A stretch of DNA of 64,000 nt from Convolutriloba macropyga (GCF_964194025.1 NC_134472.1:32302001-32366000), one strand, 5' to 3'. Shown: positions 5,023-62,863, counted from the stretch's first letter. Notes: a model not told the origin generated them from the sequence alone. Made by a program: numbers and translations.

Positions 5023-5089
5023 TTTTGGTTATATCTGATTATAAATCATTACACGTTGCCAAATAGCTTAAAAACAACAGAAACTGCAG

Positions 5090-5983: not shown

Positions 5984-6164
5984 GATTGGAATATATTACA
6001 GGAGGATATTTACAGGAGTAATTTACAATTATTGATATTTACAATTAGAACTATGTTACAGAATCTGTTGCTTAAAAAGAACTATTGTGCTAACGTTTAA
6101 AACTAGCAATGCATAAGAAAGTGTTTAAAAAATGAAGGTCAAGAAGCAACTGTACAGAATGAAA

Positions 6165-9726: not shown

Positions 9727-11213
9727 AAAAACTAAATCAACTAAACTCTTGTGATCAATGCTAACGGTAGTAGCTGATAAAAGTTTCTATGCTAGTAGCG
9801 ATCTTGTGAGGAGTAGCAATAACAAATTTAGATTGTGAATTCCGATCAGATGCTTTTCACTGATGGTGACTCAAAAAGGCCGATTTGAAAAAAAAAATTC
9901 CGGCATGCAATAGAAGATATCTTTCCCCAAGAACATTCAATCATCAAGCCATTGAGTCCCATAGGACAAACACCGGTCATGAGTAATTTCTGACGGTTTC
10001 TTCACTATTTTCCACTGCCAATTTGAGAGAACTTTTTTGTGGTTGGAACAAAAACAATGGTCCAATATCTGAATTTTTCTTTGCTTTCAATAGTTTGCCG
10101 TTGAAAATTAGCTGACCAAAATTTTCATTTTCTGTCCAAAGTCGTTGTAGACAATACTTTGCGATTCACCGTCTTTAACAAACGATTAGTACAAACTTCA
10201 CAATAGGAACGAAAAACTACGTACACCATGAGATAGATTTCCACTTGCTTTTAGCCGTTCGAAGTCTACTAGACTGCTTGAATAAATTTAACAAATATTT
10301 CTAATGACGTCTGTCAAATTCATTCCACAACTCCCCAAAAAATTTAAGTATTTCTGGAACCGAGCTTCAAAATCCGCCGTACACTTTCAATTGCAGACAG
10401 TACAGACAGTAAATTGTGTAAACTAATGACTAAATTGTGTTCCACGTCTTCGACCTAATTGCGGATTAAGGCCAAACTGCAGATTGGGGCAAATGCATAT
10501 CATGGATTAAAGAAGCCTTGGTATCTGAATTAGATCTTAAGTAGTTACAGCAAAATTCACTATATCAATACTTAGGCTGATTGAGATTATTCCTACGTAA
10601 GGCATTCCTCAACATTTTTTGTTGATGCTAGGAGAAATCAATGTCGCCATTTTTGGGTAATGGATTTTTGTAGGTTCTTTGTGTTGATACAAACTTTGCT
10701 TGCGCAGATAGTATTAGCGGATTATGGTAATTGACCATTTTTATGCAATTGCGCAAACTTCAGTTAATTTCCAACATCGCTTACAACCCTATTCTTAAAA
10801 ACTCGTGAACGAAAAAGCGCTACAATTTCAAGCGAGTACTTACAGTCGCTGGAGTGCGCTTTCTGTATTTTGGCGCCCAATACTATCTTTGAACAATTGT
10901 TTGTTTGAGCGGAGGAAGCGCAAATTAAATCTTCAAAACTCACGCTCAATTGCAAATGATAAAAACAAAGAATATCACTATTTGCGAAGCAGGATTCCAT
11001 TGGTTTGAACTATCGCAAAAAAGCTCGGCTTGAAGGGAAAATATGTTCAATGAGTCAAAAGCCCATAGTATTGCTCAACAAGATTTAAAACTTCTGAAAA
11101 TGTATCCTCGACTTTTCTCTAAGAAAAACTCTCTATAAAACTATTATGAATTTTTTAATAACTTATCTACAATATTTATCACGAATTATATTCAATTAAT
11201 GTGCATTCAGAAT

Positions 11214-11482
11214 CTATTTAGCTTTAGTGGAATGTGCGACTTGGGAATGAGTTTTGAGACACTTCCTGATGAACTTGAATACTTCTTCGTAGTCGTCTTG
11301 TTTGAAGCGCACATTCTCAAGTAGTCGCTTTGCACTGATCGGTTTGATCACAGTGTGGCTTTTGGGATCAGTACCTGCATCTTGGACATTGAGCCACCCT
11401 TTGACGTCTTCTACGATATCCTCGTCCGAGACGGAGTCGGCAAGGACGTCCTTCTTATTTGCCAGTATCAGACAGGGGTAGT
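11214..11482 (-). CDS. Arf/Arl-like small GTPase-fold protein, last coding exon
   Basis: G4 LILANKKD and G5 ISAK motifs; acceptor gttgtag| at 11484-11483 is phase-compatible with the donor at 28772, joining as LSP-D-YPCLILANKKD. Confidence 0.75.
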
Positions 11483-11563
11483 CTACAACCACAATATAGT
11501 ACAGTTCCCAGCGTCAAATAAGTACAGATTTTCATTAGCTTCGGCGAAAATTTGTTCCGACCC

Positions 11564-11787
11564 AGTAGTAGTAGGCGAGCAGAGCTGGGGGGGGGGGGTA
11601 AAAGGACGTACCTATGTATAAAGATTACCTATAGCCTATTTTCATCAATTTTCCAAAGACGTACCTAAAAAAGAGAGTGAGAACAATAGACCTGTCATCT
11701 TATCGTAATTACCCAGGTGTAATTATCGTAATTACACCAGGGAAATGCATCCGCTCTAATGCACTTCAGCTAATCTTATCTACTTAA
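11564..11787 (+). repeat. Polinton left terminal inverted repeat (224 bp)
   Basis: Matches the reverse complement of 26260-26482 except for 3 substitutions and 1 G in the G-run. Confidence 0.97.
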
Positions 11788-11934
11788 TATATCTGCGGAA
11801 CTTTCACTTTTAATCATTTTCACATTTTATTCATCCGCGCATAGTTATCACAACTATAACTTTCTTTCATTCATTTACATAAGGAGAATACTATTTTATC
11901 ATTTTTCATTGCAATTCAGTCAATTTTTACTGAA

Positions 11935-12600
11935 TTTACCCGATTTTGGGCTGATATACTTAAATTTTGACAATTTTACCATTTTTTGCCAAAAAATACC
12001 CAATTCTTGGCAAAAATACCCAATTCCTCCCAAAAAATACCTAATTCTTCCAAAAAAATACCCAATTCTGACCAAAAATACCCAATTCTTGGCAAAAAAT
12101 ACCCAATTTTGGCCAAAAAATACCCAATTCTTGGCAAAAAATAGCCAATTTTTACCAACAATTACCCAATTCTTACTAAAAAATACCCATTTCTAGGCAA
12201 AAAATACCGAATTTTTACCAAAAAATACCCAATTCCTGGCAAAAATACCCAATTTTTGGCAAAAAATACCCAATTTTTCTAAAAAAAAATACCCAATTCT
12301 GACCAAAAAATACCCAATTCTTATCAAAAAATACCCAATTCTTCCCGAAAAATACCCAATTCGTGGCAAATAATACCCAATTCTTATCAAAAACTTCCCA
12401 AATCTTACCAAAAAAAACCCAATTCGTGGCAAATTATACCCAATTCTTATCAAAATCTACCCAAATCTTATCAAAAATACCGAATTCGTGGCCAAAAATT
12501 AACAAGTTTGAGCTGAAAATTCCCAGTTTTATCACCACATTTCAAAAAATTACCCAAAATTCAAAGAAATTTACCCAAATTTGTCTACTGTACTCCCATT
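11935..12600. repeat. Subterminal ~22-bp minisatellite (consensus ~AAAAAATACCCAATTCTTGGC)
   Basis: More than 20 imperfect copies; source of the spurious repetitive ORFs at 11909-12605. Confidence 0.92.
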
Positions 12601-12659
12601 ATTAGCACAATTTTGTAATTTCGGAACCTTACAAGTTTCAAAAGCTTCAATGTAATAAA

Positions 12660-12950
12660 GAAATCTCTCACGTGATCCCATTAATTTTGCTTGGAGGTAA
12701 ATGACCTCTGCTTTGTAAAGTCCCTAATAATAAATTTACTGTGTCATCTGTTAATGTGCCTAAAATTCTCACGTGATTAGACAATTAGTCACTATATTAT
12801 TGTCACAATTACTCATAACATTACGATTACATCATTGTAATTCACAATTACGTCATAGTGTCGTAATAATTACGTCATAATAACGTTACAATTACGTCAT
12901 TCTGTCGTCTCAATTAAGTCATTATGTGGTCATAATTACGTCATATTCAA
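12660..12950 (+). promoter_or_regulatory. Putative pPolB promoter: E-boxes plus phased ATF/CRE-like array
   Basis: TCACGTGA at 12668 and 12769; ATTACGTCAT or variant at 12826, 12847, 12869, 12891, 12913, 12935. Confidence 0.6.
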
Positions 12951-13129
12951 CAAAGAACTTTTCATTTCCATTTATTTTCATTTTTCTGATTTACAGAATT
13001 GAGTACAGTTGAGAACTCTAATCTTTACAACTTCTGACAAAAATTTTATTTCATCGCAACTTCCATTTTAACAATTTTTTACTCCTCCTTTTCTCACTTC
13101 TAATCTTACAACTTATTTTATTTTCAGAG

Positions 13130-16100
13130 ATGCCTCGAAAGTCGGACCAAAAAGAACTTTGCAAGTCTTGCGATAAGTTTATTTTGAAATCCAATATGAG
13201 CAGACATCAGAAGCGTCACGCAAAAGTTTGCTCACAATGCTCCCAGTCATTTCCGGACGACGAGAAACTGCGGAAACACATTGCTTCTGTACATGCACCG
13301 TCTCTGGTTATCAAGAAAAAGTTTTCATGTAGAAGCTGCAATTTATCGTTCTCCACATATTATCAACTTCTCCATCATAAACGAAACAATCATCTACATT
13401 CTCCTCCAGTGGATTACGATGACGTCGACTTATCTATATACGGAGAATCCTTCGTTCTTCATAGTGAACTTCAAACGGTTCAACACTTTTTACAAGACTC
13501 ACAGCTTGAATTGTCTAGAAAGAAAGTGCATAACTTCAAGTTATTCGAACTCAGCCACGAAACAGTGATCAACAAATTGGATTTCGTTTACAACGACTTA
13601 CCCAGTTCAGCGAAAATTAACATTTCCTTTGGATTCGTGCTGCAGAGTGTGTATAACTCGGACGAATTTCGATACTTTTACGCGGCAGACAACAACCCCA
13701 TTTTTTTAAATCCTATGGTTCTCTCCGATGACTCAGATCTCAATTTTATCAAATCGAAATTGAGAAGTGAAGATTTTCTACCCAATCTAATCAATCAACG
13801 TCCAGACACGAAGTGGAAGTTTTATTGTGTTACAAATGTCACTTTCTTTGTATTTCTCCTCAGTGGTGTTCCTTTAGGCTGTATAACTCAAAATATTCCA
13901 TCTATTTTGCTCAGGAACGGTTAGGTTAAGTGTTTTGTTTCGGATTGCGAACTAAAACCTTATCAAGACAACTTATGTATGTTCCGTGCTTTAGCTTACG
14001 ATTTGTACGGTAGTGATGAGCTACAAAATAAAAAAATGGAATTGATGCAGATGTTTCTCTCAGCAACAAGGAGAGATGGCGAAAGCTTTCCAGGAGTACA
14101 TGAAGATGATATTCCTTTTCTTGAAGAGCTGACTGACCGAAACATTCAAGTTTACACCATTTTCATTGACGATCAGTCTGAATTATATGCTGAACTTACT
14201 CGTCGCTCCTTGATGAAACGCACAAAGACAACTTCGTTGCTGAGATATGAAAATCATATCTGTTGGACAGCGGACATCAACAAATTCCTCAAAAAATTCC
14301 GGTGCTACGTATGCGATCAGTTTTTCGACAGATCCTTCAATCTTATGAGGCACATACAAACTTGCTCCGAAAACACGCAACACAAATATCCAACAGGAGC
14401 CTATCAGTTATCAGAAACTATTTTTGATCGTTTGGATGACGTTAAAATTAATGTTCCACAAGAACTCAGGCTTTTTTCTCATCTTATTGTATTTGATTTT
14501 GAGTCAATAACCGTCCCCGAAAATACACTCAGAAACACAGATTTGACTTCGTGGATTGGAAAACATGTTCCCATTAGCGTGTCGATAGCTTCCAACCTAC
14601 TTAAAGACCCAATATTCATTTGCAACGAAGATCCATATCAACTAATCCGTGATTTTGTATCCAGCTTGACTAATATAGCAGAAAAAAGCACACTTATAAT
14701 GAGGGAAAAACTCAATGCTTTCGTGCTGGAATTGGAAGAAAAGTATTGGGCAGTTCGACAATTGGTTCCAGTGAAAGACAAGCAGGTACCCACCGGAGTG
14801 CACGACTTATTTGACAACGAAGCTGAACCCAACGAAGAGGAGGACGAAGACCTTGAAATTAGGAGACTGAGATGCGAGCTCAAGATGTTATCAAATTTGA
14901 GACAAGACTTTGAGAAATATTACAGCACTATTCCTGTTTTCGGGTTTAATAGCTCTCGGTATGATTTGAACCTGATAAAAGAATATCTTCTGCATCATCT
15001 GTTAATAGAAAAAAACGTTGTTCCCAAAGTGATTCGTACGGGGAACAAATATATTGGAATGAACTTTCTTGGCTTGCAATTTCTGGACATTCTTAACTTC
15101 CTGGGAGGAGCTACAACTCTGGATAATTTTCTGAAAGCGTATGGAGCCAGTGAAGAGAAGGGTTTTTTCCCTTATGAGTGGTTTGACAGTGCTGAAAAGT
15201 TGAATGAGAACCAACTGCCACCAATTGAAAGTTTCTGGAGTAAGTTGAAAAACCATAACGTCTTGTCAGTCGATTACGATAAGTTCATGGATTGCAAAAA
15301 AAGGGGAATTGAAGAAAAGGAAGCTTTAAAGAAGCTGAAATTAAAAACAGTTCCCAAAAATGCAGCGGAAAACTATCGGGAACTTCAAAACATTTGGGAA
15401 AAGGAGAACATGAACACATTTCGTGATTTTCTCAAGTGGTATAACAACAAAGACGTCGTGCCCACTCTTGATGCGATGACAAAGATGATTCAATTCTACC
15501 ACTCAAAACAAATTGATATGTTGAAACTGGGCTACACGCTTCCCAACTTGGCAAACAGATTTCTCCATTCATCAACAGATGCTGCAATTTTCCCATTCTG
15601 CGAGCAAGACAAGGAATATGATAACTATATCAGAAATTGGCTGACGGGAGGACCCTCGATTATCTTCACCCGATATGCAAAAGTCGGCGAAACGAAGATT
15701 AGAGAGTCCGAAAATGTATGCAAATCTATAGTAGGCATTGATGCAAGTCAACTATACCCATTCTCAATGACCAAGGAAATGCCAACTGGACTCTACACAA
15801 AATGGGAGTTCAACGTCGACACTGCAAAGTTTCACCCAAAAAGGAATTGGAGGAGTTTCTTTGAGCAGCAAGTAATCGATTACTTGCAGAGCACTCGTCC
15901 AGAATGTTTAATACAGTCACAGTTCAGTCACAAAAAACAGAAAAGAATTGGAACTTATCTCGTCGATGGCTTCTGCTCTCATTGCAACACAGTGTTTGAG
16001 GCAATGGGATGCTACTTTCACTTTTGTACCTGTCAGGAGGAAAAGCCGCTGTTATTTGAAGATATAGAGAACGGATTAAAGACACGGGAACGAGATAGTG

Positions 16101-17458
16101 ATCGAAGAGAGTATCTGCAGGGTTTAGGATACACAGTTGTTGAAATTTGGGAGTGTCAGTGGAAAAAGTGGAGGAGGGAAAACATAAATGGAGTAAAAGA
16201 GTTCGTCAACAAGAAATATCCATTTCAGCAATCCCTTTCCAAAAATTCTCTTATTGAAAAAATAAAACGAGGAGATTTGTTTGGTGTGGTCGATTGCAGC
16301 CTCGAAGTCCCTGAACACTTGTACCCTTACTTTGAGGACTTTCCTCCTATTTTTAAGAATTGTGAAGTTGGACGAGACGACATCGGGCACCATATGAAAG
16401 AATTTGCTGAGCGACACAAGTTATTATCAAAACCAAGAAAAATGCTCATTTCTAGTTTCAAGCTTGACAGAGGACCAATTATTACTCCACTTTTGTTATT
16501 TTATCTGGAAAAAGGAGTGATTCTAAGAGACGTTTTTTGGTTCCTACAATACACTCCCCGCCGCTGCTTCCAGTCCTTTGTGCAAAACGTTGTCGACGCT
16601 CGCCGCGATGGAGACCGAAACAAAGACTCAACAGTCGTTGCTGAAACTATGAAATTGATAGGTAACAGTTCTTACGGGTACCAGATAATGGATCGTAGCC
16701 GGCATACGACCACAAAATATGTTAAAGGTTCTCAAGTGGATAAATTAATTAACAACAGATTTTTCAAGACGTTAAATGAGTTGCCAGAAGAGATTTACGA
16801 AGTGGAATTAAACAAGACACGTATCATACATAAAGAACCAATAATAGTTGGTTTTTTTATTCTGCAGTACGCTAAGCTTACAATGTTACAACTCAAGTAC
16901 AATTTTTTCTCCACTTTCTGAGACAAAAATAAGTACGAACTCATTGAAATGGATACAGACAGTCTGTACATGGCGCTTAGTGAGGAAAAACTTGACAGAA
17001 TCATTCGACCAGAAATGCAATCGTTGTGGTACTGGATGAGACAGAGCGACTGCAGTGATAATTTTGCAGCAAACTCAAGCAGCAACTTTTTCCCACGTGA
17101 ATGTTGCAACAAGCATGCGAATTTTGACAAGAGAACTCCAGGCTTGTTCAAAGAAGAATTTAGATGCTCAGAAATGATTGCTTTGCGCTCAAAAACTTAT
17201 TGCTGCTACGATGAGCAATCAGATACTGTAAAATTATCCAGTAAGGGGCTCAACAAAAACAACATCGAGGAACCCTTAGCCAAATACAGAAAAGTATTGT
17301 TTGATGAGGAGCGGGTATATTCAACGAACAGGGGATTTCGCGTAGTCGACAATCAGAAAGTATGCACATATGAACTCAAAAAAAAGGGACTGTCATACTT
17401 TTATCCCAAGCGTAAAGTCTGTGAAGACGGAATTCACACTACTCCTTTAGATATATAA
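13130..17458 (+). pseudogene. pPolB: Protein-primed family B DNA polymerase (ZnF-TP-vOTU-Exo-Pol with Vsr-like insertion); one reading frame with two premature stops
   Basis: ORFs at 13130, 13979 and 16949 share one frame; stops TAG 13922 and TGA 16919; ExoI IVFDFES, ExoII FNSSRYD, ExoIII YNNKDV, motif A IDASQLYP, B KLIGNSSYG, C MDTDS. Confidence 0.95.
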
Positions 17459-17703
17459 GTCATTTTCTTTAGATTTTGTAAATTTTAGCCTTCTTTCATT
17501 TTATATCTTTTTCAATTCACTGTTTACCTCACAAAATGTCTTTTGAAAAAAAATCCTTGTATAAAATAACTAAATTAGATACAAATACACATACAAATGA
17601 TTAAGTAAAAAATTTACAAATTTTTTTTTAAAAAGTTTTGAAAACCATTTGCATCGTTTTACGGATTAATGTTTAAACAATTAAAGATTTTGGTTGTCAA
17701 AAC

Positions 17704-18099
17704 TTACAAAACATCAGCAAAGAACTTCGAAATATGAAAATCATTTAAATATTTAGACGAGACTTTAGAAAATAACACATGTGCAAAATAAATAGCATAT
17801 AAACCACACAATTCTGAATCTTGGAGTTTTTCCTGTACTAATGAACCAAAGTTTGATTTCGTCTTGATGCCATATTTTTCCAAAACTTCTCCCATCGAAT
17901 CACCGTAGAACAACTTTCCATTTTTGTTGGCTAGCAAAATCCAGTGTGAGCCCGGTTGAGTAGATGGATCTGTGTTGATTATACAAAACGTGTTTGTAGG
18001 TAAATTTTTTGGCCGAAGATCTGCTGGGAAGGAACCGAGATATTTGAACTTTAGGTGTGGAAACCTGTTGACAACATGTAAGAGTTGTTGATTATCCAT
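17704..18099 (-). CDS. PRO: Adenovirus-like cysteine (maturation) protease
   Basis: IINTD...PGSHW (His), YGDS (Asp), LQDSELCG (Gln/Cys); ATG overlaps the MCP stop. Confidence 0.92.
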   Translation of the reverse strand: MDNQQLLHVVNRFPHLKFKYLGSFPADLRPKNLPTNTFCIINTDPSTQPGSHWILLANKNGKLFYGDSMGEVLEKYGIKTKSNFGSLVQEKLQDSELCGLYAIYFAHVLFSKVSSKYLNDFHISKFFADVL

Positions 18100-19328
18100 T
18101 TTTGGTGACTGATCCCTCCTTATCAATTGCAATTGAGCTTATACGTTCACCACTAACAAATAATTCTACAGTATTGGTCAAATTGTTAGCAAAGTAGAGC
18201 TCCAAACGAATTCCTGCTCCAACTACATCAGGAAAATGCATTTCGACATTGGCCTCCTGTGTTGAAGTAAGATCGAAAAATAAATGAAAATGGTTTTCAA
18301 AATCCTTGTATTGAATGTTAGGACCGTCATCATCAAATTTGAGTGCTTTCATCGTTTCAGCATAAGCTCTCACGTGATTTTCTGTTTTCAAGTTTACAAT
18401 AGTTTGATTCCCACGCACAATTTTAACTTGTCGAAGACCAAATTTACGAAAATGGAACGGATTAGTGTTGTATGTTCCACTGAACTCATTATTCAGATTC
18501 ATAGCAATATATCATTCGAATTGGTTTGTTTGAAAATATATTTTCTTGTATAAACTGGTTCTGTCCTGCGGGAATGATAAACGTTTTTGGAAGTTCTTCA
18601 TTATAGTAAAATATGGCAGGTTCTCGCAGCAGTCTACTTTTAAAACTTCTCATCCAGTTATCTGAGATCGCTACCTGTCTAGTAAAAAGGCAAGCTTCCA
18701 AAATTAAGGCTTCCGAGTTCAGCCCACCAGTATCGATCATATAGAACGCTGGAGATGATCGGATCAATTTCAGTCTGAGGTTGACATTTGGGAGAAGTAA
18801 AGGTTCACAAGCAAATAGACCTATTGCCAACGGACCGTAAAAAGTAAATTCATCTTTATCTTTTTGAAAAACAGTATCTGTAAATGCTCTTTTTGTAAAA
18901 TCGTTCGGCTCAATCTCGTATCGATATCCTTGGCATTGAGATAAGCTTTCCTTCGTTCCTTTTGTCCCTGAAAATTCAGCAGAGACAAAAGCTTGATGAG
19001 CATAAAGAGAATTGGCACTGTGAACTTGTTCATTATTAAGATATACTTCGCAATTAGAGAAAAGAGAATGAAGAGCATTGTTTACCAATAATGTTTCTTC
19101 GGCATTATCTAAACGTGTTCGATCTCCTTTAATAACCCTTCCTCTGATGATTAATCGAGTAGAGCGCAAGTCAGTAAAAATATTACGATCAGTTTCCAAT
19201 TGAAATTCGATTGTTGACTCGTTTAAGGAATTTGTTGGAAATATTTGCTGTTCATTGGACCAAAGAATGGGGTCTAAAATTGGAACTTTCCCAAAAAAGT
19301 CGAGCATAGAGTGAGACAAGGAATTCAT
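18092..19328 (-). pseudogene. MCP: Major capsid protein (double jelly-roll, PY), frameshifted near 18510
   Basis: NNALHSLFSNCEVYLN, LLLPNVNLRLKL, ENIFS...FSGTYNTNPFHF, FDLT motifs typical of Polinton PY; split over ORFs 18489-19328 and 18092-18502. Confidence 0.88.
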
Positions 19329-19368
19329 TTTAGCCTACCGTTTTTTATAATGATAATTGAGGAAATGA

Positions 19369-20171
19369 TCAAGATTTTTTCTGGAATAATAACGTAAGTT
19401 GAACTTGACCAATAGGGAAGAAGGGAACAAGGTGCCCAGCAGCGTTTCTTAATTCTACATGGATACTGTGGAAGTTGGATTTGATTACTTTATGGAATCT
19501 CAAGTGTTCGAAACTGCGATAACTCAGAACTTGCGATCTCTTAAAAATCTCATCATTATGGAACTCTCGGTGTTTGAACGGAAACGAGCGTAGAAGAGGA
19601 CATTTCACATCACAGACTGAATTGGGTTCAACTATATCCAAGTAGAGTAAAACTTTATGTGTTCCAGTAATATCAAAAGGAGATCTGCCGTTGCCCAGGA
19701 CTTGGTGTTGTATGATCCTTTCGAATCAGGTGGCATAACAGGTTTGTCAGCTTCAACGCCCAAGTTAGCAGCCAAACTTTTGCTGAAGGATACATTTTGA
19801 GAACCTCTATTGCAAAAAGTTAGTCTTCGACTTTTTTTGTCGATGTTGATAGAAAATTGAGGATCTAAGTTTTTGGGATGTCGTGCTTTTTTGGGTATAT
19901 CTGTAAGACTCTTCGCAAATTCGTCCATAGAGTTAAAAACTGCTGGTGGAATAGCGAATACATGCTTAAATTTCTCATCATAGTGAAATGTCATCAATCC
20001 TCCTTCAATGTTATAACATATACCGGGATATGATACTTCGACTAAAGCTACTTCCCATGATCCATCCAGTTCAATTTTGTCGGGAAGAAAATTGGTGAAC
20101 GAAGCCATTGCATTTTGAGGGTAAACTTGAGAGGAAGCGTTGGATACCAATTCTAGATAAAACGAATTCAT
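19369..20171 (-). pseudogene. mCP: Minor capsid (penton, PX) protein, frameshifted near 19680
   Basis: N-terminal FYLELVSNAS...FTNFLP...LDGSWEVAL; C-terminal YLDIVEP...PLLR...SIHVELRN...LTLLF. Confidence 0.85.
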
Positions 20172-20212
20172 GATGTTTGACTGTTCTGTGTGACGTTTGT
20201 TTGGAAAAATGA

Positions 20213-20551
20213 TTAGTCAAGGTTCTTCAAAAGGTCTTTGCGAATTTTTTGTCGAGTAACACTTTGTCTAGTGTTTTTCCTCTTTTTCATACCACTACCA
20301 ACTTGTTTCTGTATTGTTGATTTTGCAGTCTTCTTTACTGCTTTTTTAATCGAAGTCTGTCCTGATAAAACACCACCAATTTCGGGAATGGCTGACTCGA
20401 TTACATCTCGTCCAATTTTTTTTGCTGCAGGTAAAACGTATTTCTTGAGAATGGGAAGAGTTGTCCTAGCGACTGTTCTAGCCAAGGCTCCAAAGCCACG
20501 CCCCCTCTGACGAGGAACTCCTTTAAAATAAGGTAGATTGTAACCGTCCAT
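20213..20551 (-). CDS. Small basic virion core / membrane-active-like protein with Q-x-G-x-G motifs
   Basis: QRGRGFG, amphipathic helices, QVGSG and a K/R-rich tail; located among Polinton structural genes. Confidence 0.7.
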   Translation of the reverse strand: MDGYNLPYFKGVPRQRGRGFGALARTVARTTLPILKKYVLPAAKKIGRDVIESAIPEIGGVLSGQTSIKKAVKKTAKSTIQKQVGSGMKKRKNTRQSVTRQKIRKDLLKNLD

Positions 20552-20578
20552 TTTCTAGCGCGACTAATTGAAAAATGA

Positions 20579-21521
20579 TTATGCAACTTTTGACAATTCT
20601 TGTTCGTAAAAGATTCCATCAATGTTTTCTCCTTTCTGAACAACAGCAAAATATGTCGGGAAGGGCGCTGAAGTATTTATTTTTCGAACTAGGAAAATTT
20701 CATGTGCATAGTGAGGTTTATATCCTTTCAGAAATTTGCCCTCTGCTAATGCCAACCTAACTTTATCTACTACTTGAAACTTGGGCTTTGTATTTTTTCG
20801 TAGCTTCATTCGCTTGTACATGACAGTCAAAAAGTCGGCATTCACTACATCTTTGGGCGCCAACCCAATATTCCGATTGATTCTTGAGTTAATGACGTCA
20901 ACAAACATTTGCAGTTCTTTGATATAGGTTAATGTGTCGTTTTCTTCCAGGTAGCGGTAAATTAAAACTTTCAGGGTTCGTATAGCTCTCTCGCCAAAAG
21001 CTACTTTTGTTTCACTATAAGTGTGATAATATTTGACTCCCACATCCTCGCAGAAATTAGCCATATCTCCAAAAAACTCTTTTCCTTGATCTAGCCATAA
21101 TTTTTTTGGGAAATTGAGTTCGTTCTTTTTCGAACACATCTTGATAAATGCTGCTTTCACACCCTCTGCTCCTTTGCTTCGCAATGCTTCCACTCGCAAA
21201 AATCGAGAAAAAACATCAACAGTAACGAGTAAAAAGTTGATACCTCGATTCCATCGTGATAGTTTATCCATTTGTGCAAGATCCAAACACCAAATCTCAT
21301 CAATATAGCGAGCATGCGCATTTAGCCGGGGAAATTTTTGTCTGATTCCTTTGTACTTCGTATAAGAGTCTTTTGACTGTAAAAATTCTGTAACTCTCGC
21401 GACTGATTCCACTTGCTTTTGTTAGGTTATTGATAGAACCGAAAGCTGTTGGTCCCTTCCCTTTATACAACTTCTGCAATTTGATTCTATCTGAAACTGT
21501 AATTGAACCAGTCTGAGCCAT
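20579..21521 (-). pseudogene. INT: Retroviral-like DDE integrase, frameshifted near 21395
   Basis: WCLDL (D), VDVFSR, WLDQGKEF (D), GERAIRTLK (E); N-terminus (PTAFGSINNL) lies in ORF 21300-21521; no C-terminal chromodomain. Confidence 0.92.
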
Positions 21522-21954
21522 ACTGTGTCCTCAAAATGTTGTTTTTAACCAGATGTGGTCTCAGATTTAAAACTTTAAGAATAAGGAAATAGTTTGGATC
21601 AACTGGAGCGTTCTTCAATTTAATTGAATGAAGGAATGTTTTTATGTCAACTCCTGTGTCAACGTTGTCGACAATAATTGTATTGGAAAGTGAAATTTTT
21701 AACCGTTTGTTTTCGTATATCTCTTTCAAAGTTTTCAATGTCTCAGGATAGTTCTTATAGTGAAATTCCAGGTCTGTCTTAAGTTCTTTAGGTGGACGAT
21801 TGGTTTCTTCGGAACGTTCTTCTTTCACTTTTTTGATAACTGGGAAAACTGTTTCTTCTTTTTTATAGATCTCGCTGTAGGGTTCCGATGGTTTTCTTTT
21901 TCTGGTCTCCCACAGTTCTTTTGGAACAAGAACAAACTTTTTGACCTCACTCAT
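21487..21954 (-). CDS. Polinton hypothetical protein (155 aa)
   Basis: ATG-initiated ORF tightly overlapping both neighbours in the co-oriented gene block. Confidence 0.65.
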   Translation of the reverse strand: MSEVKKFVLVPKELWETRKRKPSEPYSEIYKKEETVFPVIKKVKEERSEETNRPPKELKTDLEFHYKNYPETLKTLKEIYENKRLKISLSNTIIVDNVDTGVDIKTFLHSIKLKNAPVDPNYFLILKVLNLRPHLVKNNILRTQYGSDWFNYSFR

Positions 21955-22267
21955 TGAAGAAAGTTGAAAATTTGTTCATACAAGGTTGGTATATGTAACT
22001 TAATATTGTTATTCCAGCTTTTGAGCGCAATATAAGTCTTCTGGAACTTAGGGTTGTTGATTTTGAAGTGAGCTTTCTAAGTTGTTTTTGGAAGCGAACA
22101 AACTGTTTTTTTCTTACTCCTGTGAGGTTTCCTTTAATCAAGTTTACAATACACTCACAGAGAAATCTGATGAATTCCTTAGGACAATGTAGAAGGAAAG
22201 CTGGTTGAAATTTCTTGTTGAGATTCCGAAAGAGCTTCAGAGTACAATAATTCTGTGCGTTTATCAT
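21947..22267 (-). CDS. Conserved Polinton small basic protein (CECxxNxxKGN motif)
   Basis: FLCECIVNLIKGNL motif recalled from Polinton accessory ORFs; overlaps the ATPase 3' end. Confidence 0.65.
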   Translation of the reverse strand: MINAQNYCTLKLFRNLNKKFQPAFLLHCPKEFIRFLCECIVNLIKGNLTGVRKKQFVRFQKQLRKLTSKSTTLSSRRLILRSKAGITILSYIYQPCMNKFSTFFNE

Positions 22268-22919
22268 TAATATCACTAATACGAGCACGACTGTTCGGTA
22301 CGAAGAATTCTGAAGGAAATGAAGTTACATTTGAACAATATCTTAACAAATCAGGTGTAGATGGTCTCAAATCAATCATAAGATGCCCATATGGTTGTTG
22401 TGTAGCGTCATCATACCATTGTTTTAGTTGTTTTCCCAGACCCAGTTGTCTTCCCAATGTATCAATTTGCTGCACATCTCTGGGTGATTTGAACAAAACA
22501 ATGTGAGTAGTCTGAAGCTCGGCATCACGTCCAGTTTTATTTTTGTGGAAGAGATTATGTTTGATATAAACACAATTTAAACTTCGATGTCTACCGGCTG
22601 TCGCAATTTCGTTGAATTTTTCCGACTTGGAAAGAATGTCTAATGAGTCATCGAATATAAGTAAATGTTTTGTGCCGTCAGCTGGTAAGTTCTCAATTAA
22701 TTCAAAGTCAACACCCTGAATGAATTCTATGCCTGCAATTGATTGCATCATTGTATCGTAAATTGTCTGAAAGTGCTTATAAAAGTACAAAATTCGATCA
22801 AACGAGGGTTGAAAAGTTTTCATTTGCAGCATATCATTAATGAAAACAGTTTTCCCAGATCCGGAAGGCCCAACAAGATACATCAGAATGCGTTCCTTTG
22901 TTGATATAATCTTGTTCAT
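22179..22919 (-). CDS. ATP: A32/FtsK-HerA-like genome packaging ATPase
   Basis: Walker A GPSGSGKT, Walker B LLIFDD, GRH motif, IVLFKSPRD. Confidence 0.93.
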   Translation of the reverse strand: MNKIISTKERILMYLVGPSGSGKTVFINDMLQMKTFQPSFDRILYFYKHFQTIYDTMMQSIAGIEFIQGVDFELIENLPADGTKHLLIFDDSLDILSKSEKFNEIATAGRHRSLNCVYIKHNLFHKNKTGRDAELQTTHIVLFKSPRDVQQIDTLGRQLGLGKQLKQWYDDATQQPYGHLMIDLRPSTPDLLRYCSNVTSFPSEFFVPNSRARISDINDKRTELLYSEALSESQQEISTSFPSTLS

Positions 22920-22920
22920 T

Positions 22921-23175
22921 TTATGCTTTGGGATTAGGAAGTATGTAACCTACAGCACTTGAAAGAATAGCAATCCAAACTGTTCGTTCGTCACAAGTTC
23001 TAGCAAAAATAAGGTTGATGATTGAAAAAAGAAGAAGTATTAATACAACTAAGCACTGGAATATTGACAAAAAAGCTGTTCGAGAGCAAGTGCGTCCGCA
23101 AATTTTCCAAGGAGGTCGCTCCTGATTGTTATTATCGAAACTAAAGTCAGCTGCGTGATTGTTATGATCTGTCAT
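22921..23175 (-). CDS. Small two-transmembrane protein
   Basis: Two hydrophobic segments, C-terminal LSSAVGYILPNP; stop 1 nt before the ATPase ATG. Confidence 0.75.
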   Translation of the reverse strand: MTDHNNHAADFSFDNNNQERPPWKICGRTCSRTAFLSIFQCLVVLILLLFSIINLIFARTCDERTVWIAILSSAVGYILPNPKA

Positions 23176-23217
23176 TAGAGTGCAACTGATTTTTGTTCGT
23201 GTTTAGGAAATAATGAT

Positions 23218-23616
23218 TCACACTTTGATTGAATGGAATCGTGCTGAAAATTTCAGAAAACAACAATATGCTAGTCCTGTTATATGTCCCAAGAAACAAA
23301 AGTTAAATTTTGAATTAAGGAATGAAACCATGTAACAGTACCCAGGACCAATATTTAGATTTGTTTTGAGGTATCCCGTTGCATCATGAAATGTGGCATG
23401 TAAACGAAAAATTTTCGACCAATTCAAAAGTTTTTCTAACTTTGAATCACCAACTCCTATTAGACCTCCAAAGGGAGCTTCTCTGTTAATTTTATCTGGA
23501 TCTGCATTTCTGTCAAAACTTCGACAGACAGCCAAAAAATAATTTTTCCTTTTTGTATTTCCAACAAAAAGTTGACTGATTTCTTTTTCGAACTCTACAA
23601 TTTCCTTAATATTCAT
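23218..23616 (-). CDS. Phospholipase A2-like protein
   Basis: GLIGVG loop followed by a helix containing HATFHD (His-Asp dyad); hydrophobic C-terminus. Confidence 0.55.
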   Translation of the reverse strand: MNIKEIVEFEKEISQLFVGNTKRKNYFLAVCRSFDRNADPDKINREAPFGGLIGVGDSKLEKLLNWSKIFRLHATFHDATGYLKTNLNIGPGYCYMVSFLNSKFNFCFLGHITGLAYCCFLKFSARFHSIKV

Positions 23617-23700
23617 ATCAAGCAACTGTTCTGAAAGAATTTAATTCAAAAAGTGAATAAATAAAGACATCACATACATTATAAAAGTTTACAATTACTT

Positions 23701-24449
23701 CTATGCACTTTGCGATTTTGTCGGGTTTTTGACTTTGTTCAGCGCTGAAATAATTTCATTGCTCATTCGATGTAATTTCTGCAACTCCCCAATTCTGACA
23801 GAAAGGAAGCATTTCCTTCTAAAACTGTCCTTTTCAGTCCCTCGAGTGAAGAGCTTGATGCTGAAATAACATCGATTCGGATCATCTTGGTAAAATGTTC
23901 TGGTCACACATATTTTCGCCTAGCAGTCTCACTCAATTCCCAGAACACATCGAATTTTGCTTTTTCCTCCACATCAGTTGGCTGGAACAAAGTTTCGTCA
24001 ATCATCAACTTTGCAGTAACTTCTGAGGGTTCAAATTGTAGTGCTTCTTTCAACATCTCAGGTAATTTTTGGATGAAAATTTTCAATTCCCAGACCGACA
24101 GCATCAGAAACTGATGTAGAACAAATTCACCTTCGACATTTTCGCGAAAGACTTTCAAGTGGGTCCAATTCGAGCTTGTGTTGATAGTCTCCTCTGGGAT
24201 GCTGATTTGAAATTTCCGGTTGCTGTATTCTTGGAAAGACCAAAGGTTGTTGTTTCCTTGGTGATCCTCATTTGGTTTGCAAACAGTGTCCTCAACTTTC
24301 ACGTTGGTATCGGTAAACAAAGAATATATGCTTTCATTATGATAATCAAACTGGGAGGAAGGAATAACTGGTTTTCCCTTATGGTTTCGTTTGCGGAAGG
24401 GGAAGGCGTAGGGTTTTTTGCTGTCAGCTGAGACTGAACTTTGATCCAT
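23701..24449 (-). pseudogene. Protein with two PC4-like ssDNA-binding repeats; probable frameshift at ~23907
   Basis: ORFs 23904-24449 and 23701-23907 join across a TGTGTG slip; the two halves align with each other and with the PC4 pattern. Confidence 0.55.
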
Positions 24450-24569
24450 CTGTGGCGTGTGAAGTAAGTAAAAGATGAGTTTTTAAAGAAAGAAAGGAAG
24501 AATTGAATAAATAAGGTAACTGAATATTGAAAACGAAAAGCAACAAATGAATGAATTATCTTCAAGAAA

Positions 24570-24760
24570 GAGCTTTATAAATCGAACCAATACAATTTTA
24601 GTAAGAACGAGAATTATTGCGACTTCGTACCCAATGAGATCATGTAAAAGCAGTCGTAACCAATGAGATTTGAGTGTTCATCATGACGTAATAGTTATGT
24701 CATTTCTATTTTTAGTAACATCACGTGACGTGACAATTTATGTCACGTGAGGGAGAATTT
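24570..24760 (-). promoter_or_regulatory. Putative promoter for the minus-strand gene block
   Basis: TATAAA (minus) 24574-24579; CCAATGAGAT at 24631 and 24660; ATGACGTAAT 24683-24692; TCACGTGA at 24721 and 24743. Confidence 0.55.
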
Positions 24761-24788
24761 ATCAGTGAACACAAGCAACTGTTAAGAC

Positions 24789-25367
24789 CTATATTGGAGA
24801 GCACTTGTAGTTCGAGAAAGGAACATTTTGATGAAGTGGTTGGTTCTCATCATTGTCATTTTCCTGGATAGGAGGAAGAATGAGGTCTTGGAAATTGGGT
24901 AGATCGAAGATTTGTGATTTTGTAGAAAATGTATCAGCATGTTTGGAGAACATGTCTTCTACCCACCATACACCGTAGTGATTTATATCACGAGAGTACG
25001 GGAACAAAATACCTTTGCAGTCTTTCAGTGGATGAAATCCTTGTTCTTTTCGAATTCTCTCAACGGCTTGAAAATAAGTGGGGAGAGAAAGTACTGAATT
25101 GTTGACTTTTTCTTCGGCTAAGTGGAGGTTATGATGTCTAGCAGCCTCTAAAGTTCTCCACAAATCTTTCGGAAGTGTTAAGCTAGTAGTCTGTGTTTTT
25201 ATCGTTACTCTTGTGCAATCCACCTCAAAGGATAATTCGGTGTTGTTATCAGTTACTGTTGTTCTAAATTTTGATTCCTCTTTGTTGGGAACGAAATCTA
25301 AATCAGAATGAAATGTCGAAAGAAAAGATGTTGAAGGAAGTAAAGGAAGTGTTGGAGTATTTTGCAT
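24789..25367 (-). CDS. Polinton hypothetical protein (~192 aa)
   Basis: Long ATG-initiated ORF co-oriented with the block; weak PC4-like segment VTIKTQTTSLTLPKDLWRTL. Confidence 0.6.
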   Translation of the reverse strand: MQNTPTLPLLPSTSFLSTFHSDLDFVPNKEESKFRTTVTDNNTELSFEVDCTRVTIKTQTTSLTLPKDLWRTLEAARHHNLHLAEEKVNNSVLSLPTYFQAVERIRKEQGFHPLKDCKGILFPYSRDINHYGVWWVEDMFSKHADTFSTKSQIFDLPNFQDLILPPIQENDNDENQPLHQNVPFSNYKCSPI

Positions 25368-25489
25368 TTTTTTATGACCACTGATTTTCAAATGAGACAA
25401 ACCACAAAATGAACAGAGTTTCTCGGTCCTAGCTTATTTAAACATAGATTATACGAATGATATGATTGGTTAAAAAAATTCATTATAGT

Positions 25490-26250
25490 AAAACATTTTT
25501 ACAAAAAAAAATTAATATAAAACTTTTACATAAAAAAACTTCAAAAATTGAAAAATGGAATAAAAGAAAAATAAAAAACCGCAAAATTTGCATTTTCTGT
25601 TAAAAACCTTATGTAAAAAACCGCATTTTTGAAAGAAATTTATTTTAAGTAAAAACGATTTTTTTTCCAAAAAAAATTACATTAAAAAACTTCAAAAACT
25701 GAAAAAATGGAAAAATAGAAAAATAAAAAACATCAAAATCTGCATTTTTTGCTAAAACCTTATGTAAAAAACGACATTTTTGAAAGATATTTAATTTAAG
25801 GAAAACAATTCTTTTCAAAAAAAATAATAAAAATTTACATGCAAAAAACTGCAAAACTGAAAAATGATAAAATAGAAAAATAAAAAAACATAAAAATCTG
25901 CATTTTTTGTTATAAACCTTATGTAAAAAACAACTTTTTTTAAATAAGAAATATTCTAAAAAAATTAGCATTTCTATAAAAATAATTATTTTTTTAAATT
26001 AAACTCAAAAATTCGAAAAAAAAATGAAAACTATTTTTTTTTCGAAAACTAAGAAATGGAAAAAAAGAAAATTTCAAATTATACATTTTTCATCAAAAAC
26101 CTTACGAAAAAAAAGACATTTTTCAACCAAAATTGATTTAATTAAATTTAAAAAAAATAAATTTAAAATAAAAAAATTTACATAAAAAACTTCAAAAATT
26201 GAAAAGTGGAAAAATAAAATAAAAAAAAAACAAAAATAATTATTTCCTTT
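25490..26250. repeat. A-rich subterminal tandem repeat, ~150-185-bp unit, about 5 copies
   Basis: AAAACCTTATGTAAAAAA-like anchor at ~25603, 25754, 25913 and 26097. Confidence 0.85.
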
Positions 26251-26259
26251 CAAAAAAGT

Positions 26260-26482
26260 TTAAGTAGATAAGATTAGCTGAAGTGCATTAGAGCGGATGC
26301 ATTTCCTTGGGGTAATTACGATAATTACCCCTGGGTAATTACGATAAGATGACAGGTCTATTGTTCTCACTCTCTTTTTTAGGTACGTCTTTGGAAAATT
26401 GATGAAAATAGGCTATAGGTAATCTTTATACATAGGTACGTCCTTTTACCCCCCCCCCCAGCTCTGCTCGCCTACTACTACT
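26260..26482 (-). repeat. Polinton right terminal inverted repeat (223 bp)
   Basis: Reverse complement of 11564-11787. Confidence 0.97.
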
Positions 26483-27900
26483 CGACCCCACTTTTAGTGA
26501 GAGAAGTATATGTCGAAAGGATTTGTTTTTTTTATATAAATATTTATCGTAGAGAGTTGTGCGTGGTATCATGAGAAAGCATGTCCAGCGTATAATATTT
26601 AAATAAGTTTTTCTCGAATTTCGACTTTTTGTGGAGTTATAGAGGTTTACACTTTTGTGAGCATCGGCTAATTTTAGCAATGTTTGTTCACCTTTTAGAA
26701 TTTTTTGTGTTCAAATTTTATTTGGTTTTGATCAAACAAATTCAAATGTGACCAAACACGTTATTGTTGTCATTTTCTCAAAAAGTGACACGGAGTTACT
26801 GAATCTATTAGTTTGAAATTTTTGTCTCAATATTTGATAAAAAAACCCATTTTTTACAAGAAAACGAGCCCAAAATTAATTATTTTTGGTAATACTTCCC
26901 GAAAGCACTGCCATAAATCCTGTTCAAACGATCAAATAAACTACATCGAGGGCTAGTTGGACCTGACCTCTACTATCTGGAAATTTTTCCATCCAATTAC
27001 AATCGAAATAACGTTATTTTGTTCACCTTTAGCGCAACTTTCAGTCTATTTCAAATTTTTGCATGGTTTCAAACAATTACCTATTAGTTAGAGCCGAGCA
27101 TCGATAGTCACGCCAAAATTTGTCTCATTGTGGTTTTTACAATTCTTAAGATTTAGATTGTATTGGGCGTTGTGTTTTTTGAAGATCTCTTCTCACTTGC
27201 TTCCACTTTTGATGTTTAATTTGATTATTTATTTGACAAAATGTTTGATACCTTCGAGAAAATTTTTCGACTTTCCAGTCGACGGTTTATGGGTTTTTAC
27301 GGCTTCGACAAAAAATGTTTGCAAAAACAGCTTTTCCTTCGATTTTTGTTTTTGCTAAACTGAGAGTTCCTCGAAGAGTATCTCTGAGTCTCAATACTGA
27401 CCGCTCTCATTGAATTCTTAGCAAGGCATAACTAAACCTATTTAGCGTTTTCACTTGATAGCTAAAGTTTCCAATGAATTTATCTCAATAAATTTTTAGT
27501 TTATACACTAAAGTTTCAGTGGAGTGTTTTGAGTATTTTGTGCGCTTTTTATGTCGTGTATTTATTTGCAGTAAAGTTGATACTAGTGCTTTGGGTTGAT
27601 AGATTGTGTATTATAAGACTTTATGGTTGTGTTTATAAAAAATTGTGATATTTTATACGACTAATTGTTATCTGTTTTGTTGTCTTGTCTCATAGTATCA
27701 TTAACTGCAAGTGCTTTCGTATTTTATTTATAATTGAACAAATCTGATGGTCTTTTCACTTGATAGTTCAGTATTTTAGGACTATAACACTAAACCATCT
27801 TGCAAAAAGACGGCGAATTTTTGAATTCTGCGTTTTCCTTGTTGTTCTCTTTTGTCGGCTTCTAACTTAATGCCAGATACCATCTCCTTTCCAGGAAAGC
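26483..27900. mobile_element. Remainder of a TGTTCCGACCC-terminated non-autonomous element interrupted by the Polinton (its first 11 bp are at 11553-11563); distal end uncertain
   Basis: 26489-26700 aligns with the reverse complement of ~33380-33604; further patches match 30260-31730. Confidence 0.6.
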
Positions 27901-28772
27901 ATATGTGAATCAGTTCAATAGTTTCAGATTTCATCTATCAAATAGCAATAAATTTGTGATTGCCTTTCGCAATTATAACACATTTAGTTTTGGGCGAAAA
28001 ATGAAGTTCTCTCTATAAGTTTTTCCTCCTTTTTCTTATTAATTTAGCAGATTTAGTCTCAAACGTTTAGCTCACCGTCAAAAATATTCGTTATTGTTAC
28101 AATTTTACTTGTCAAGTCACTAATTTCCTTGTTGCAATTCAGAACCTGTCCTGCCTTTTTTAGTTTTCTAATTCATCGTCTTCTTTGATTCATGTTACGA
28201 CCATCTCAGTACGCGCCCAGATTTCCAAGGGCGACTTCAAATGTGAAATCTACCACTCAGCAGCTCAATTTGTCTGCGTGAAGTCAATTGTTACTGCATT
28301 TATTAGGTATTTTTAGGTCATTTAGGTGATCAATTAGTTGAGCTTTCATGTCTGAACTCACTCAGTTAAACTCACTGTGTACCCACATACTAAATTCAAA
28401 ATGAGAATTAAAAATTTAATTGAAATTTAATAGATCTCGCCCAAGCTAGATACTTCTAAAGCAATGTTACTCGGTATATTACTTTTTGAACAATGATTTG
28501 AATATGCTAGAATTTGAATTCAGAATTTCATGTTTGGTGTCTGGCAAAGTTAGCCTTTCACTTGATAAATTTTATTGACTTGAATTCTTTTTGTTCAGCC
28601 ATAATTTTTTATTCAGCCATGAATCTCTTTGTTCAGCCATGTCACACCTGTGTGCTTAATTTCCGAAAAAAAACTATGCTTACAAACGCTAAATTTTAGT
28701 ACACTTACTCAAACTCTTACAACCGGGGATATAAAAAATTTTACGGGTCAAAATTGACAATTAACACTGTAC

Positions 28773-29049
28773 CTGGACTAAGCTTGGCTCTGACTTTGTG
28801 AAACCACTGATTGCACAGAATATTGCTCTCAGGTTTCTCCAAATCCACCACAAATATCAACAGTGAGTATTTGTCAGAGTCAAATTCCGTGTCGTGTTGA
28901 ATGACCTCAAAGTTAACAGTGTTGTCAAGTTCTGAGAGCAGCTTGGACTTTGAAAGCCACGCTTCAACTGATTTTTTCCCACAGTTTTCAACCCCAGAAA
29001 TAATACCAACTAGCTCTGCTTGATCACCTTTTCCTTTAAACGACTTCAG
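28773..29049 (-). CDS. Arf/Arl-like small GTPase-fold protein, internal exon (first exon not established)
   Basis: Acceptor atatttcag| at 29050; degenerate P-loop GVENCGKKS; LIFVVD strand; donor G|GTACAG at 28772. Confidence 0.75.
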
Positions 29050-30023
29050 CTGAAATATAAAAATATAATTCATTAAGAACCTTAATGGGTATCATTGCAA
29101 GAAAATACAGCAATCCAAATCAGAATTTCCGTTTGTTGTTTATAGAAACTAGAACTTCTGAAACTGTTTTATGTACAAAATATGTTAATAACAAAGAGGT
29201 AACAGTTCGGTGTCATTTATTTGGAATTTTACGGCAACGAGCTGCAATTGACAGCGTAAAAGAATCAACTCAAAGTAGAGTAGATTTCTTAAGTCTCATT
29301 GCCTGGGAGAAACTTTAAAGTAATTACGCCCGTTTAAAAATATACTTCTCGTAGCTTCGGATTAGTAGCTAACATAAATCCTCCACTTTTTCTTCATTTG
29401 GCGTCGAGGATTGATAATTTCGATGCCACAAAGTTTATCAAAGGAGCTCAAATGAGCTTCCACTCCAGTTGTTTTTTTTTTATTTATTGACTGACGCACT
29501 GAATATTTGAAGCCCTTACTTCTCTTAGACGTCAGGCATTCAAAGGCATTTGAGATATTACTAAACGTGATTTTTACACAGGTGAATTTCTAAGAGTTGA
29601 GCAGCAAATGAAAAGTTGAGATAAAGGATTATGCTAATTTTCGCACCGTCGAAAAATTTTTGAACAATAAGAAAACTGAACTTTTGCCGGCGTTCTTTTG
29701 GAAAGCAACATAGTAAATTACATATAGGCAGTCCGATAAAACCAAAAAAGACATCTAATTATGGCTGATGTTAACCAATGTTCTGAAATGGATGTCAAAC
29801 GCAACAAAAACTTTTACGAATAAGTTGAGCCAATCTTTATACACTATTTGATCTAATCATCCCACAAAACAATTCAATTAGACTATTGTTCCCATAAATT
29901 TTAACCAGATCCATTTCCTAAGTATGTCCAAGGAATCTACTAATGTCTCGTTTCAGGTGTCCCAAAAAGAACAGTGAAATTTAAAGTAAACAAGGCGGCT
30001 CGTTAATGTGCGTTCACACATGA

Positions 30024-62589: not shown

Positions 62590-62863
62590 TGCTTGTAATG
62601 CAAAAAACCTGAAAGATAGAAAACCGAACCTTCACACTGAAGCAAAACGTCACACTGTGTTATGATTTTTGAATAGAGACTAAATTTGGCACTGTCAAGG
62701 AAATTGACTAAATCCAAATTAAAATTTTCAAATTTTTTCGAACTTTAAAAGATTTAAAGCGAGAAACGTAGCAAAGCAGAGAGTGTACAAACAACTCAAG
62801 CACATCAATTCAGGAAAAACTAAAATAATTCAGTTCAAGGTCATCCCTCGAGGAAAACTTCAA

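Follow-up and report, generated by a model that had tools for sequence, protein, structure and literature searches.

Here, we describe a Polinton/Maverick provirus of 14,919 bp at positions 11564-26482 of a 64,000-nucleotide stretch of the Convolutriloba macropyga genome (GCF_964194025.1 NC_134472.1:32302001-32366000; hereafter, the window), together with a family of giant palindromic elements that shares its ends. The provirus is complete and recently inserted, and this copy is defective. Taken as a whole, the evidence makes it probable that this is a recent, now disabled provirus within a host intron, whose lineage likely acts as helper to the palindromes as its satellites. We further propose, more tentatively, that animal polintoviruses might have true satellite viruses, i.e., germ-line, genome-sized snapback palindromes of the left end that keep an early regulatory gene lost by the current helper, are copied and packaged by the helper, and exchange their ends as each new helper subfamily arises. 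The palindromic family was absent from the initial annotation of this DNA.

The provirus is bounded by terminal inverted repeats (TIRs) that are 98.2% identical over 224 nt (11564-11787 vs. 26260-26482), start with AGTAGTAGT, i.e., (AGT)3, and give the element the termini AGTAGTAGT//ACTACTACT. A direct repeat, CGACCC, on either flank (11558-11563 and 26483-26488) constitutes a 6-bp target-site duplication (TSD). Between the TIRs, a polymerase gene on the + strand (pPolB, 13130-17458) converges on 12 genes of the - strand, just as the initial annotation had laid them out, and its assignment of these genes to the Polinton/adintovirus core set is supported by pPolB, the integrase (INT), the packaging ATPase, the protease, the TIRs, and the TSD. 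It had also called the element complete, with a full virion module. All 13 genes are indeed present, but the window copy is defective, with five of the 13 interrupted: pPolB contains two in-frame stops (13922-13924 and 16919-16921), and the genes for the two capsid proteins (MCP and mCP), INT, and a PC4-like protein are split between frames. In the sense of PMC8097293, where an "intact" Maverick has all core open reading frames (ORFs) uninterrupted, this copy is thus not intact (8/13 open).

Within the 1.18-Gb genome, a TIR search gave 819 candidates, 40 of which were scored, and a search with the interior gave 357, the best 40 matching at 94-100%. Nine other TIR pairs were retrieved from the TIR search, comprising six full-length siblings and three palindromes. 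The siblings are 90-98.5% identical to the window copy, and all seven full-length copies, the window copy included, have an exact 6-bp TSD. Their genes are preserved to very different degrees, with 4, 6, 8, 10, 11, 12, and 13 of the 13 open per copy. A recently active lineage with intact relatives elsewhere in the genome, as the initial annotation had anticipated, is therefore what the nearest sibling (98.5%), the uniform TSDs, and the one fully open copy bear out. A second subfamily (B) is 86% identical to the window's subfamily (A) and has the same layout. When the 16 ORF pieces of the window were compared with two B copies, all gave a dN/dS of 0.00-0.30 (Fisher p <= 0.035); therefore, all 13 genes, including the accessory ones, are real and under purifying selection. 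The lowest values occurred in MCP, mCP, ATPase, and protease (0.00-0.13; protease, 0.12-0.13). Synonymous divergence was 0.05-0.21 in MCP vs. 1.1-1.35 in the pPolB core, a contrast that points to exchange of modules between subfamilies A and B. Some copies contain internal tandem duplications in blocks of 0.7-4 kb.

Eleven palindromes were retrieved, three from the TIR pairs and eight picked as inverted pairs, and both ends were visible in 10. These 10 measure 11.4-16.9 kb, with arms of ~5-6.5 kb that are 90-99% identical to each other; the 6-bp TSD is exact in nine of them and agrees at five of six bases in the other. From the outside inward, each arm consists of the TIR, a 21-bp tandem array, brief stretches that match sequence upstream of pPolB, an ORF of ~300 codons (ORF300), a relic of pPolB, and 151-bp arrays. 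The first array corresponds to the ~25 copies that follow the left TIR of the provirus (11979-12499, +), and the AT-rich ~151-bp array that precedes its right TIR (25472-26250, +) recurs in expanded form in the palindromes, making up their centre and the inner part of each arm. Protein searches with ORF300 produced ~1,000 candidates, of which 129-150 were scored per search. We pooled 164 matches, consisting of 129 of the 132 rows of one search (three split fragments were dropped) and 35 of another, from which duplicates and rows inside known autonomous elements were excluded. The matches fell into 110 loci, 47 with multiple matches and 63 with one. Among the former, 45 were convergent and none was divergent only; a single-match locus may have an unscored partner or be autonomous. 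The family thus occupies at least 45 loci, with 40 of the 45 convergent ones on large contigs. In 18 further neighbourhoods (7-18 kb), capsid, integrase, and ATPase matches were found in none and the pPolB relic in 17. With helper ends, independent insertions, a decayed pPolB, and neither virion nor integrase genes, the palindromic family has the genomic features of a viral satellite.

Sequence comparison indicates that the palindromes derive from the left end of the window's own lineage. The part of pPolB that survives in them corresponds to window positions 16676-17161, to which the long relics (n = 11) are 73-76% identical (73-79% for relics overall). All 11 form one clade (100/100) within A+B, separate from the four copies of sister families (midpoint root). 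Moreover, an ORF300-like gene (32-36% identity) lies immediately upstream of pPolB in three of eight autonomous B copies, and these copies therefore give the parental layout of TIR, ORF300, and pPolB; no ORF was found at this position in the seven A copies. The same three B copies form a terminus clade of their own (100/99). The ends of the palindromes have a different history. A terminus tree was attempted for 22 palindromes, and the terminus was visible in 20. Thirteen of these match A helpers, including nt 41-230 of the window's left TIR (81-98% vs. 63-65% for B), and seven match B helpers (78-97% vs. 59-66% for A), with satellite and helper termini interleaved in the tree. Ends that are up to 98% helper-like around a relic of only ~75% identity are therefore best explained by terminal exchange with helpers. 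In helpers and satellites alike, the first ~25 bases that separate the AGT repeats from a G-run (11564-11603 in the window, with the corresponding part of other termini) vary as a mosaic, whatever the TIR body. In some autonomous B copies, the inverted termini extend over 0.5-1.6 kb at 88-90% identity, possibly a step toward palindromes.

ORF300 consists of an N-terminal domain of ~135 aa followed by an acidic, low-complexity tail. Its satellite copies are 67-100% identical to one another and 32-47% identical to any autonomous homologue seen among the scored matches, and 21 of 34 long matches are open. In six pairs, the N-terminal domain gave a dN/dS of 0.12-0.28 (p 6e-10 to 2e-4) and the tail 0.61-1.10. 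The domain is common to genes of the sister families (37-47% identity). ORF300 is located at the left end and its acidic tail is disordered, which makes an early regulator, one that would favour copying of the satellite, its most likely identity. Two of its homologues carry a VVIDLT motif, which we take to be SUMO-interacting. Our first guess, that ORF300 had been copied from the PC4-like gene or from another provirus gene, ORF192, failed on comparison. A protein annotated from C. macropyga is 87% identical across 37% of ORF300, and a named host gene model opens with ~100 ORF300 residues fused to an unrelated membrane-protein domain, which is either a chimeric annotation or a case of exon capture.

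Several points weigh against a helper-satellite relationship of this kind. The six cross-type pairs of the dN/dS analysis are non-independent, with deep branches in common. The ORF300 ratio rises to 0.88 where satellite copies are nearly identical (dS < 0.05), and stops interrupt 13 of the 34 long matches; most satellite copies therefore decay once inserted. Low values for the N-terminal domain alongside near-neutral ones among young copies indicate that selection acted along the satellite lineage and not on resting copies. ORF300 found no fold or function match in Pfam, PDB-sequence, or Atlas searches (model pLDDT, 31), and a close autonomous ORF300 could hide in the portion of the ~1,000 candidates beyond those scored. 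A-type satellites retain a relic of just ~85 bp and stand outside the relic tree. Furthermore, the capsid labels are putative, with no match in Pfam and PDB sequence searches, and particles, free DNA, and trans-mobilisation were not observed.

These points leave room for other explanations. It is unlikely, in our judgment, that the palindromes are dead deletion products re-formed repeatedly from several autonomous viruses, from which they would have inherited both their ends and the traces of ORF300 selection. Autonomous elements do contain ORF300 homologues, and the near-neutral ratio among young copies and the partial scoring of candidates would suit such an origin. Against it, the relics form one clade with shared boundaries, ORF300 is far more alike among satellites than between satellites and the autonomous homologues seen, and the near-identity of some ends to helpers contrasts with the divergence of the relics (73-79%). 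Even less probable is a purely intracellular, self-synthesising transposon, whose virion genes would act solely in steps inside the cell, with foldback-type, non-autonomous palindromes that move by cut-and-paste without replication. An extracellular form was not seen, and one pattern-based scan of IMG/VR with the MCP alignment found no relative; on the other hand, MCP, mCP, ATPase, and protease are the genes under the strongest selection, the roughly tenfold difference in dS between pPolB and MCP would be expected if co-replicating genomes recombine, and the arms remain homogenised while copies diverge.

We regard it as very improbable that the palindromes are fold-back artefacts of long reads or amplification. 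Some do hold N gaps and sit on small contigs, but arms differ by 1-10%, flanks are distinct with a direct 6-bp repeat in nine of 10, and most convergent loci are on large contigs. A final alternative concerns the provirus alone: in a coral polinton, a programmed split separates the terminal protein from the polymerase (PMC11161782), and the first pPolB stop could be of this kind. The predicted terminal-protein region and the vOTU motif do flank the stop, but both A and B siblings read through this position, which makes a programmed split hardly credible.

Returning to the helper-satellite reading, a mechanism can be sketched. It is established that the 6-bp TSDs of Polintons are made by the integrase. 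Protein-primed replication from repeated end motifs (PMC8097293) and terminal-protein and vOTU domains in pPolB (PMC11161782) have been described. By extension from what is established for Polintons and adenoviruses, the helper would be released as linear DNA, with pPolB priming at the (AGT)n ends via its terminal-protein domain; the rve integrase would insert the copies, producing the TSDs, and particles would be built from MCP, mCP, ATPase, and protease. The satellite may have arisen in an A/B ancestor ordered TIR, ORF300, pPolB, where a left-end deletion and a fold-back or template switch during strand-displacement replication would yield a head-to-head dimer of the left end. Such a dimer would have two origins and, at 11-17 kb, be close to the helper in size, and could be copied and integrated in trans by helper pPolB and integrase. 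It would have retained one gene, ORF300, with its N-terminal domain under selection, and its terminal ~250 bp would likely be renewed by recombination with whichever helper subfamily is currently active. If the arms are homogenised in each replication round, arm divergence would therefore date insertions.

Among the genes of the provirus, pPolB encodes a family B polymerase of the protein-primed type, which has C2H2 fingers at its N terminus (Pfam) and a Vsr/DUF559-like insert. The window ORF itself had no PF03175 match in a Pfam search and is 64% identical to a related protein that does (E 7e-19). Its insert, a nuclease of the DUF559/MTES_1575 type, lies at aa 676-741 of the 980-aa ORF (DUF559, E 2.2e-4, above the cut-off; MTES_1575, E 0.002). 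Terminal-protein and vOTU regions are likely as well, judging from a motif. Next on the - strand is PRO (17704-18099), an open gene for an adenovirus-type cysteine protease of 131 aa, with weak Pfam matches just under the cut-offs (PF00770, E 0.0036; PF02902 (C5/C48), E 0.001). MCP (18092-19328, frame split at ~18489-18511, 412-414 aa in siblings) and mCP (19369-20171, split at ~19632-19725, 267 aa in siblings) were putatively labelled by motif with synteny and by synteny with size, respectively; the labels further draw on the 412-aa size, the protease neighbour, and a dN/dS <= 0.10. Pfam and PDB sequence searches gave no match to the double jelly-roll fold expected of MCP or to the single jelly-roll expected of mCP. 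An open gene for a basic protein of 112 aa follows (20213-20551), termed core-like by motif, size, and synteny, with no match in Pfam or PDB searches; it presumably resembles the "Cupiennin" class. INT (20579-21521, split at ~21300-21421, 314 aa in siblings) is an rve integrase, with PF00665 matched at E 2.3e-7 in a window piece and at E 3e-9, above the cut-off, in a sibling gene. A 35-nt inverted match (74%) between this gene (21385-21419) and the right flank of the provirus (32248-32282) may be due to chance or to an old Polinton fragment of small size.

The remaining - strand genes begin with ORF155 (21487-21954; dN/dS 0.21-0.30), which is kept in sister families, and ORF106 (21947-22267; dN/dS 0.30), whose likeness to the "GasderminX" class is putative. 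The A32-type packaging ATPase (Pox_A32) is open (22179-22919, 246 aa; PF04665, E 3.9e-8, above the cut-off). It is followed by a two-transmembrane (2-TM) protein of 84 aa with two hydrophobic segments (22921-23175; dN/dS 0.10-0.13) and by a PLA2-like protein of 132 aa (23218-23616), labelled by an HD..Y motif that we take to be diagnostic. The many overlapping gene boundaries mentioned in the initial annotation amount to four true overlaps (PRO/MCP, 8 nt; INT/ORF155, 35 nt; ORF155/ORF106, 8 nt; ORF106/ATPase, 89 nt) and a 1-nt gap between ATPase and 2-TM. The tandem PC4/PUR-like gene (23701-24449, split at ~23904-23919, 249 aa in siblings) likely encodes a single-strand-binding protein. Two weak leads agree on a PC4/PUR fold (tandem beta-beta-beta-alpha): Atlas matches of 0.78-0.82 pointed to clusters in which 28-31% of members carry PC4, and Pur-alpha was the sole structure match with Z >= 5 among 48,161 folds (Z 6.5, rmsd 3.9, 101 aligned; query model pLDDT 36). 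The AlphaFold models of the PC4-like protein and ORF300 were of too low a quality to be relied on, and Foldseek returned nothing at E <= 0.001. The last gene, ORF192 (24789-25367; dN/dS 0.22), occurs in subfamilies A and B only. Pfam, PDB-sequence, and Atlas searches yielded no family for ORF300, ORF192, MCP, mCP, or the PLA2-like protein.

Sister families help to place this gene set. Eight stretches chosen by remote ORF300 matches contained seven sister-family Polintons or relics and one palindrome. These families share 50-60% aa identity, have another gene order, and carry two extra genes of ~200 aa. In four clear stretches, an ORF300-like gene is followed on the opposite strand by PRO, MCP, core, mCP, INT, ORF155, ORF106, ATPase, 2-TM, a ~200-aa gene, PLA2, and PC4-like, and then by a ~212-aa gene and pPolB, which point outward. 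In the window lineage, by contrast, pPolB lies at the left end, core and mCP have traded places, ORF192 is added, and the two ~200-aa genes are missing. Comparison ruled out ORF192 as counterpart of the 212-aa gene. Twelve of the 13 window genes are common to the sister families, leaving only ORF192 as lineage-specific. In addition, PLA2-like genes are a published adintovirus class (PMC8502044), and a Vsr insert has been published for marine pPolB2 (PMC10748475). The accessory set, which the initial annotation had considered unusual, is thus genuine but not exceptional. Its affinities are mixed: the PLA2-like gene suggests Alpha adintovirus modules, and the presumed Cupiennin and GasderminX likenesses suggest Beta.

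At the insertion site, one contig, which bears a non-templated T run, spans 11134-11484 and resumes at 28775, with GT-AG boundaries; the provirus therefore lies in the last intron of a host gene (11483-28772, -), 79 bp from the acceptor. The last two exons (11134-11482 and 28773-29050, -) encode a small-GTPase-like protein, and their joined frame contains an NKxD motif, which we take to be the small-GTPase G4. The contig is consistent with an allele either carrying or free of the provirus. The left flank of the insertion is single-copy in the assembly, and contigs of a second organism gave coverage of 28 of 30 bins. Contigs matched this flank and the interior of the provirus, and none formally spanned the junction. 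Elsewhere in the window, a non-LTR retrotransposon (1921-5995, -) has an open ORF1 (GDSL/OSK-like esterase) and an open ORF2 (reverse transcriptase, 1035 aa), and long single-frame host genes on the - strand encode a photolyase (40992-42779), an ATAD2-like AAA-bromodomain protein (48323-52591), and a TBCC-domain protein (60886-62631).

Lasting dependants of the snapback type would testify to protein-primed replication outside the chromosomes and to recombination among replicating genomes, which bears on whether replication as a free linear virus still occurs among animal Polintons. Satellites and helpers are close in length, and capsid packaging can be tested indirectly on this basis. If the proposed satellite relationship is true, the helper could be silenced by double-stranded RNA from convergent transcription into a hairpin. 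In an animal rich in stem cells, palindromes of 11-17 kb in such numbers (at least 45, probably hundreds) would also contribute substantially to hairpin RNA and rearrangement.

Animal Polintons/Mavericks are polintoviruses, placed by the ICTV in Eupolintoviridae (formerly Adintoviridae), Amphintovirales, Polintoviricetes (PMC8097293, PMC8502044, PMC12451622). Like them, the provirus has pPolB, an rve integrase, an A32 ATPase, an adenain-type protease, and two capsid genes (as labelled here), along with TIRs, (AGT)n ends, a 6-bp TSD, intronless genes, and mostly decayed copies; its 14.9 kb fall inside the published vertebrate range of 12.7-24.6 kb. It departs from the animal Polintons compared in its acoel host, in having pPolB alone on one strand, in its rearranged order relative to sister families, and in ORF192. 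A VSR-type nuclease within the polymerase is shared with marine pPolB2 Polintons (PMC10748475), which were compared by the insert alone. In the literature searched, we found no description of acoel Polintons (the supplement of PMC8502044 being covered in part) or, with Repbase and Kapitonov and Jurka (2006) lying outside the search, of palindromic Polinton satellites, which are also unmentioned in the portions available of PMC6431247, PMC3671162, and bioRxiv 10.1101/2023.10.06.561300.

The provirus itself is an ordinary Polinton, and the novelty lies in the helper-satellite pair, to which this study adds a traced parental layout, selection resolved by domain, and end exchange with two helper subfamilies. 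The very long, internally repetitive inverted arms of the palindromes recall the foldback transposons FB, Galileo, and Tetris, but those derive from P or Mutator transposase elements, whereas the palindromes have Polinton ends and a pPolB relic. Linear, gene-poor dependants are reportedly also found among the non-autonomous Polintons of Kapitonov and Jurka (2006). Transpovirons are further such dependants of a double-jelly-roll virus or element, but they have their own helicase and six to eight genes and, in the text available, are not described as palindromes (PMC3671162). The 5′ snapback genomes of adeno-associated virus (PMC8235507) likewise represent a helper-dependent, head-to-head duplication of the left end, with promoter region and partial replicase gene; in contrast to these, the palindromes measure 11-17 kb, integrate with a TSD, are inherited through the germ line, and form a lasting lineage that maintains a full gene under selection.

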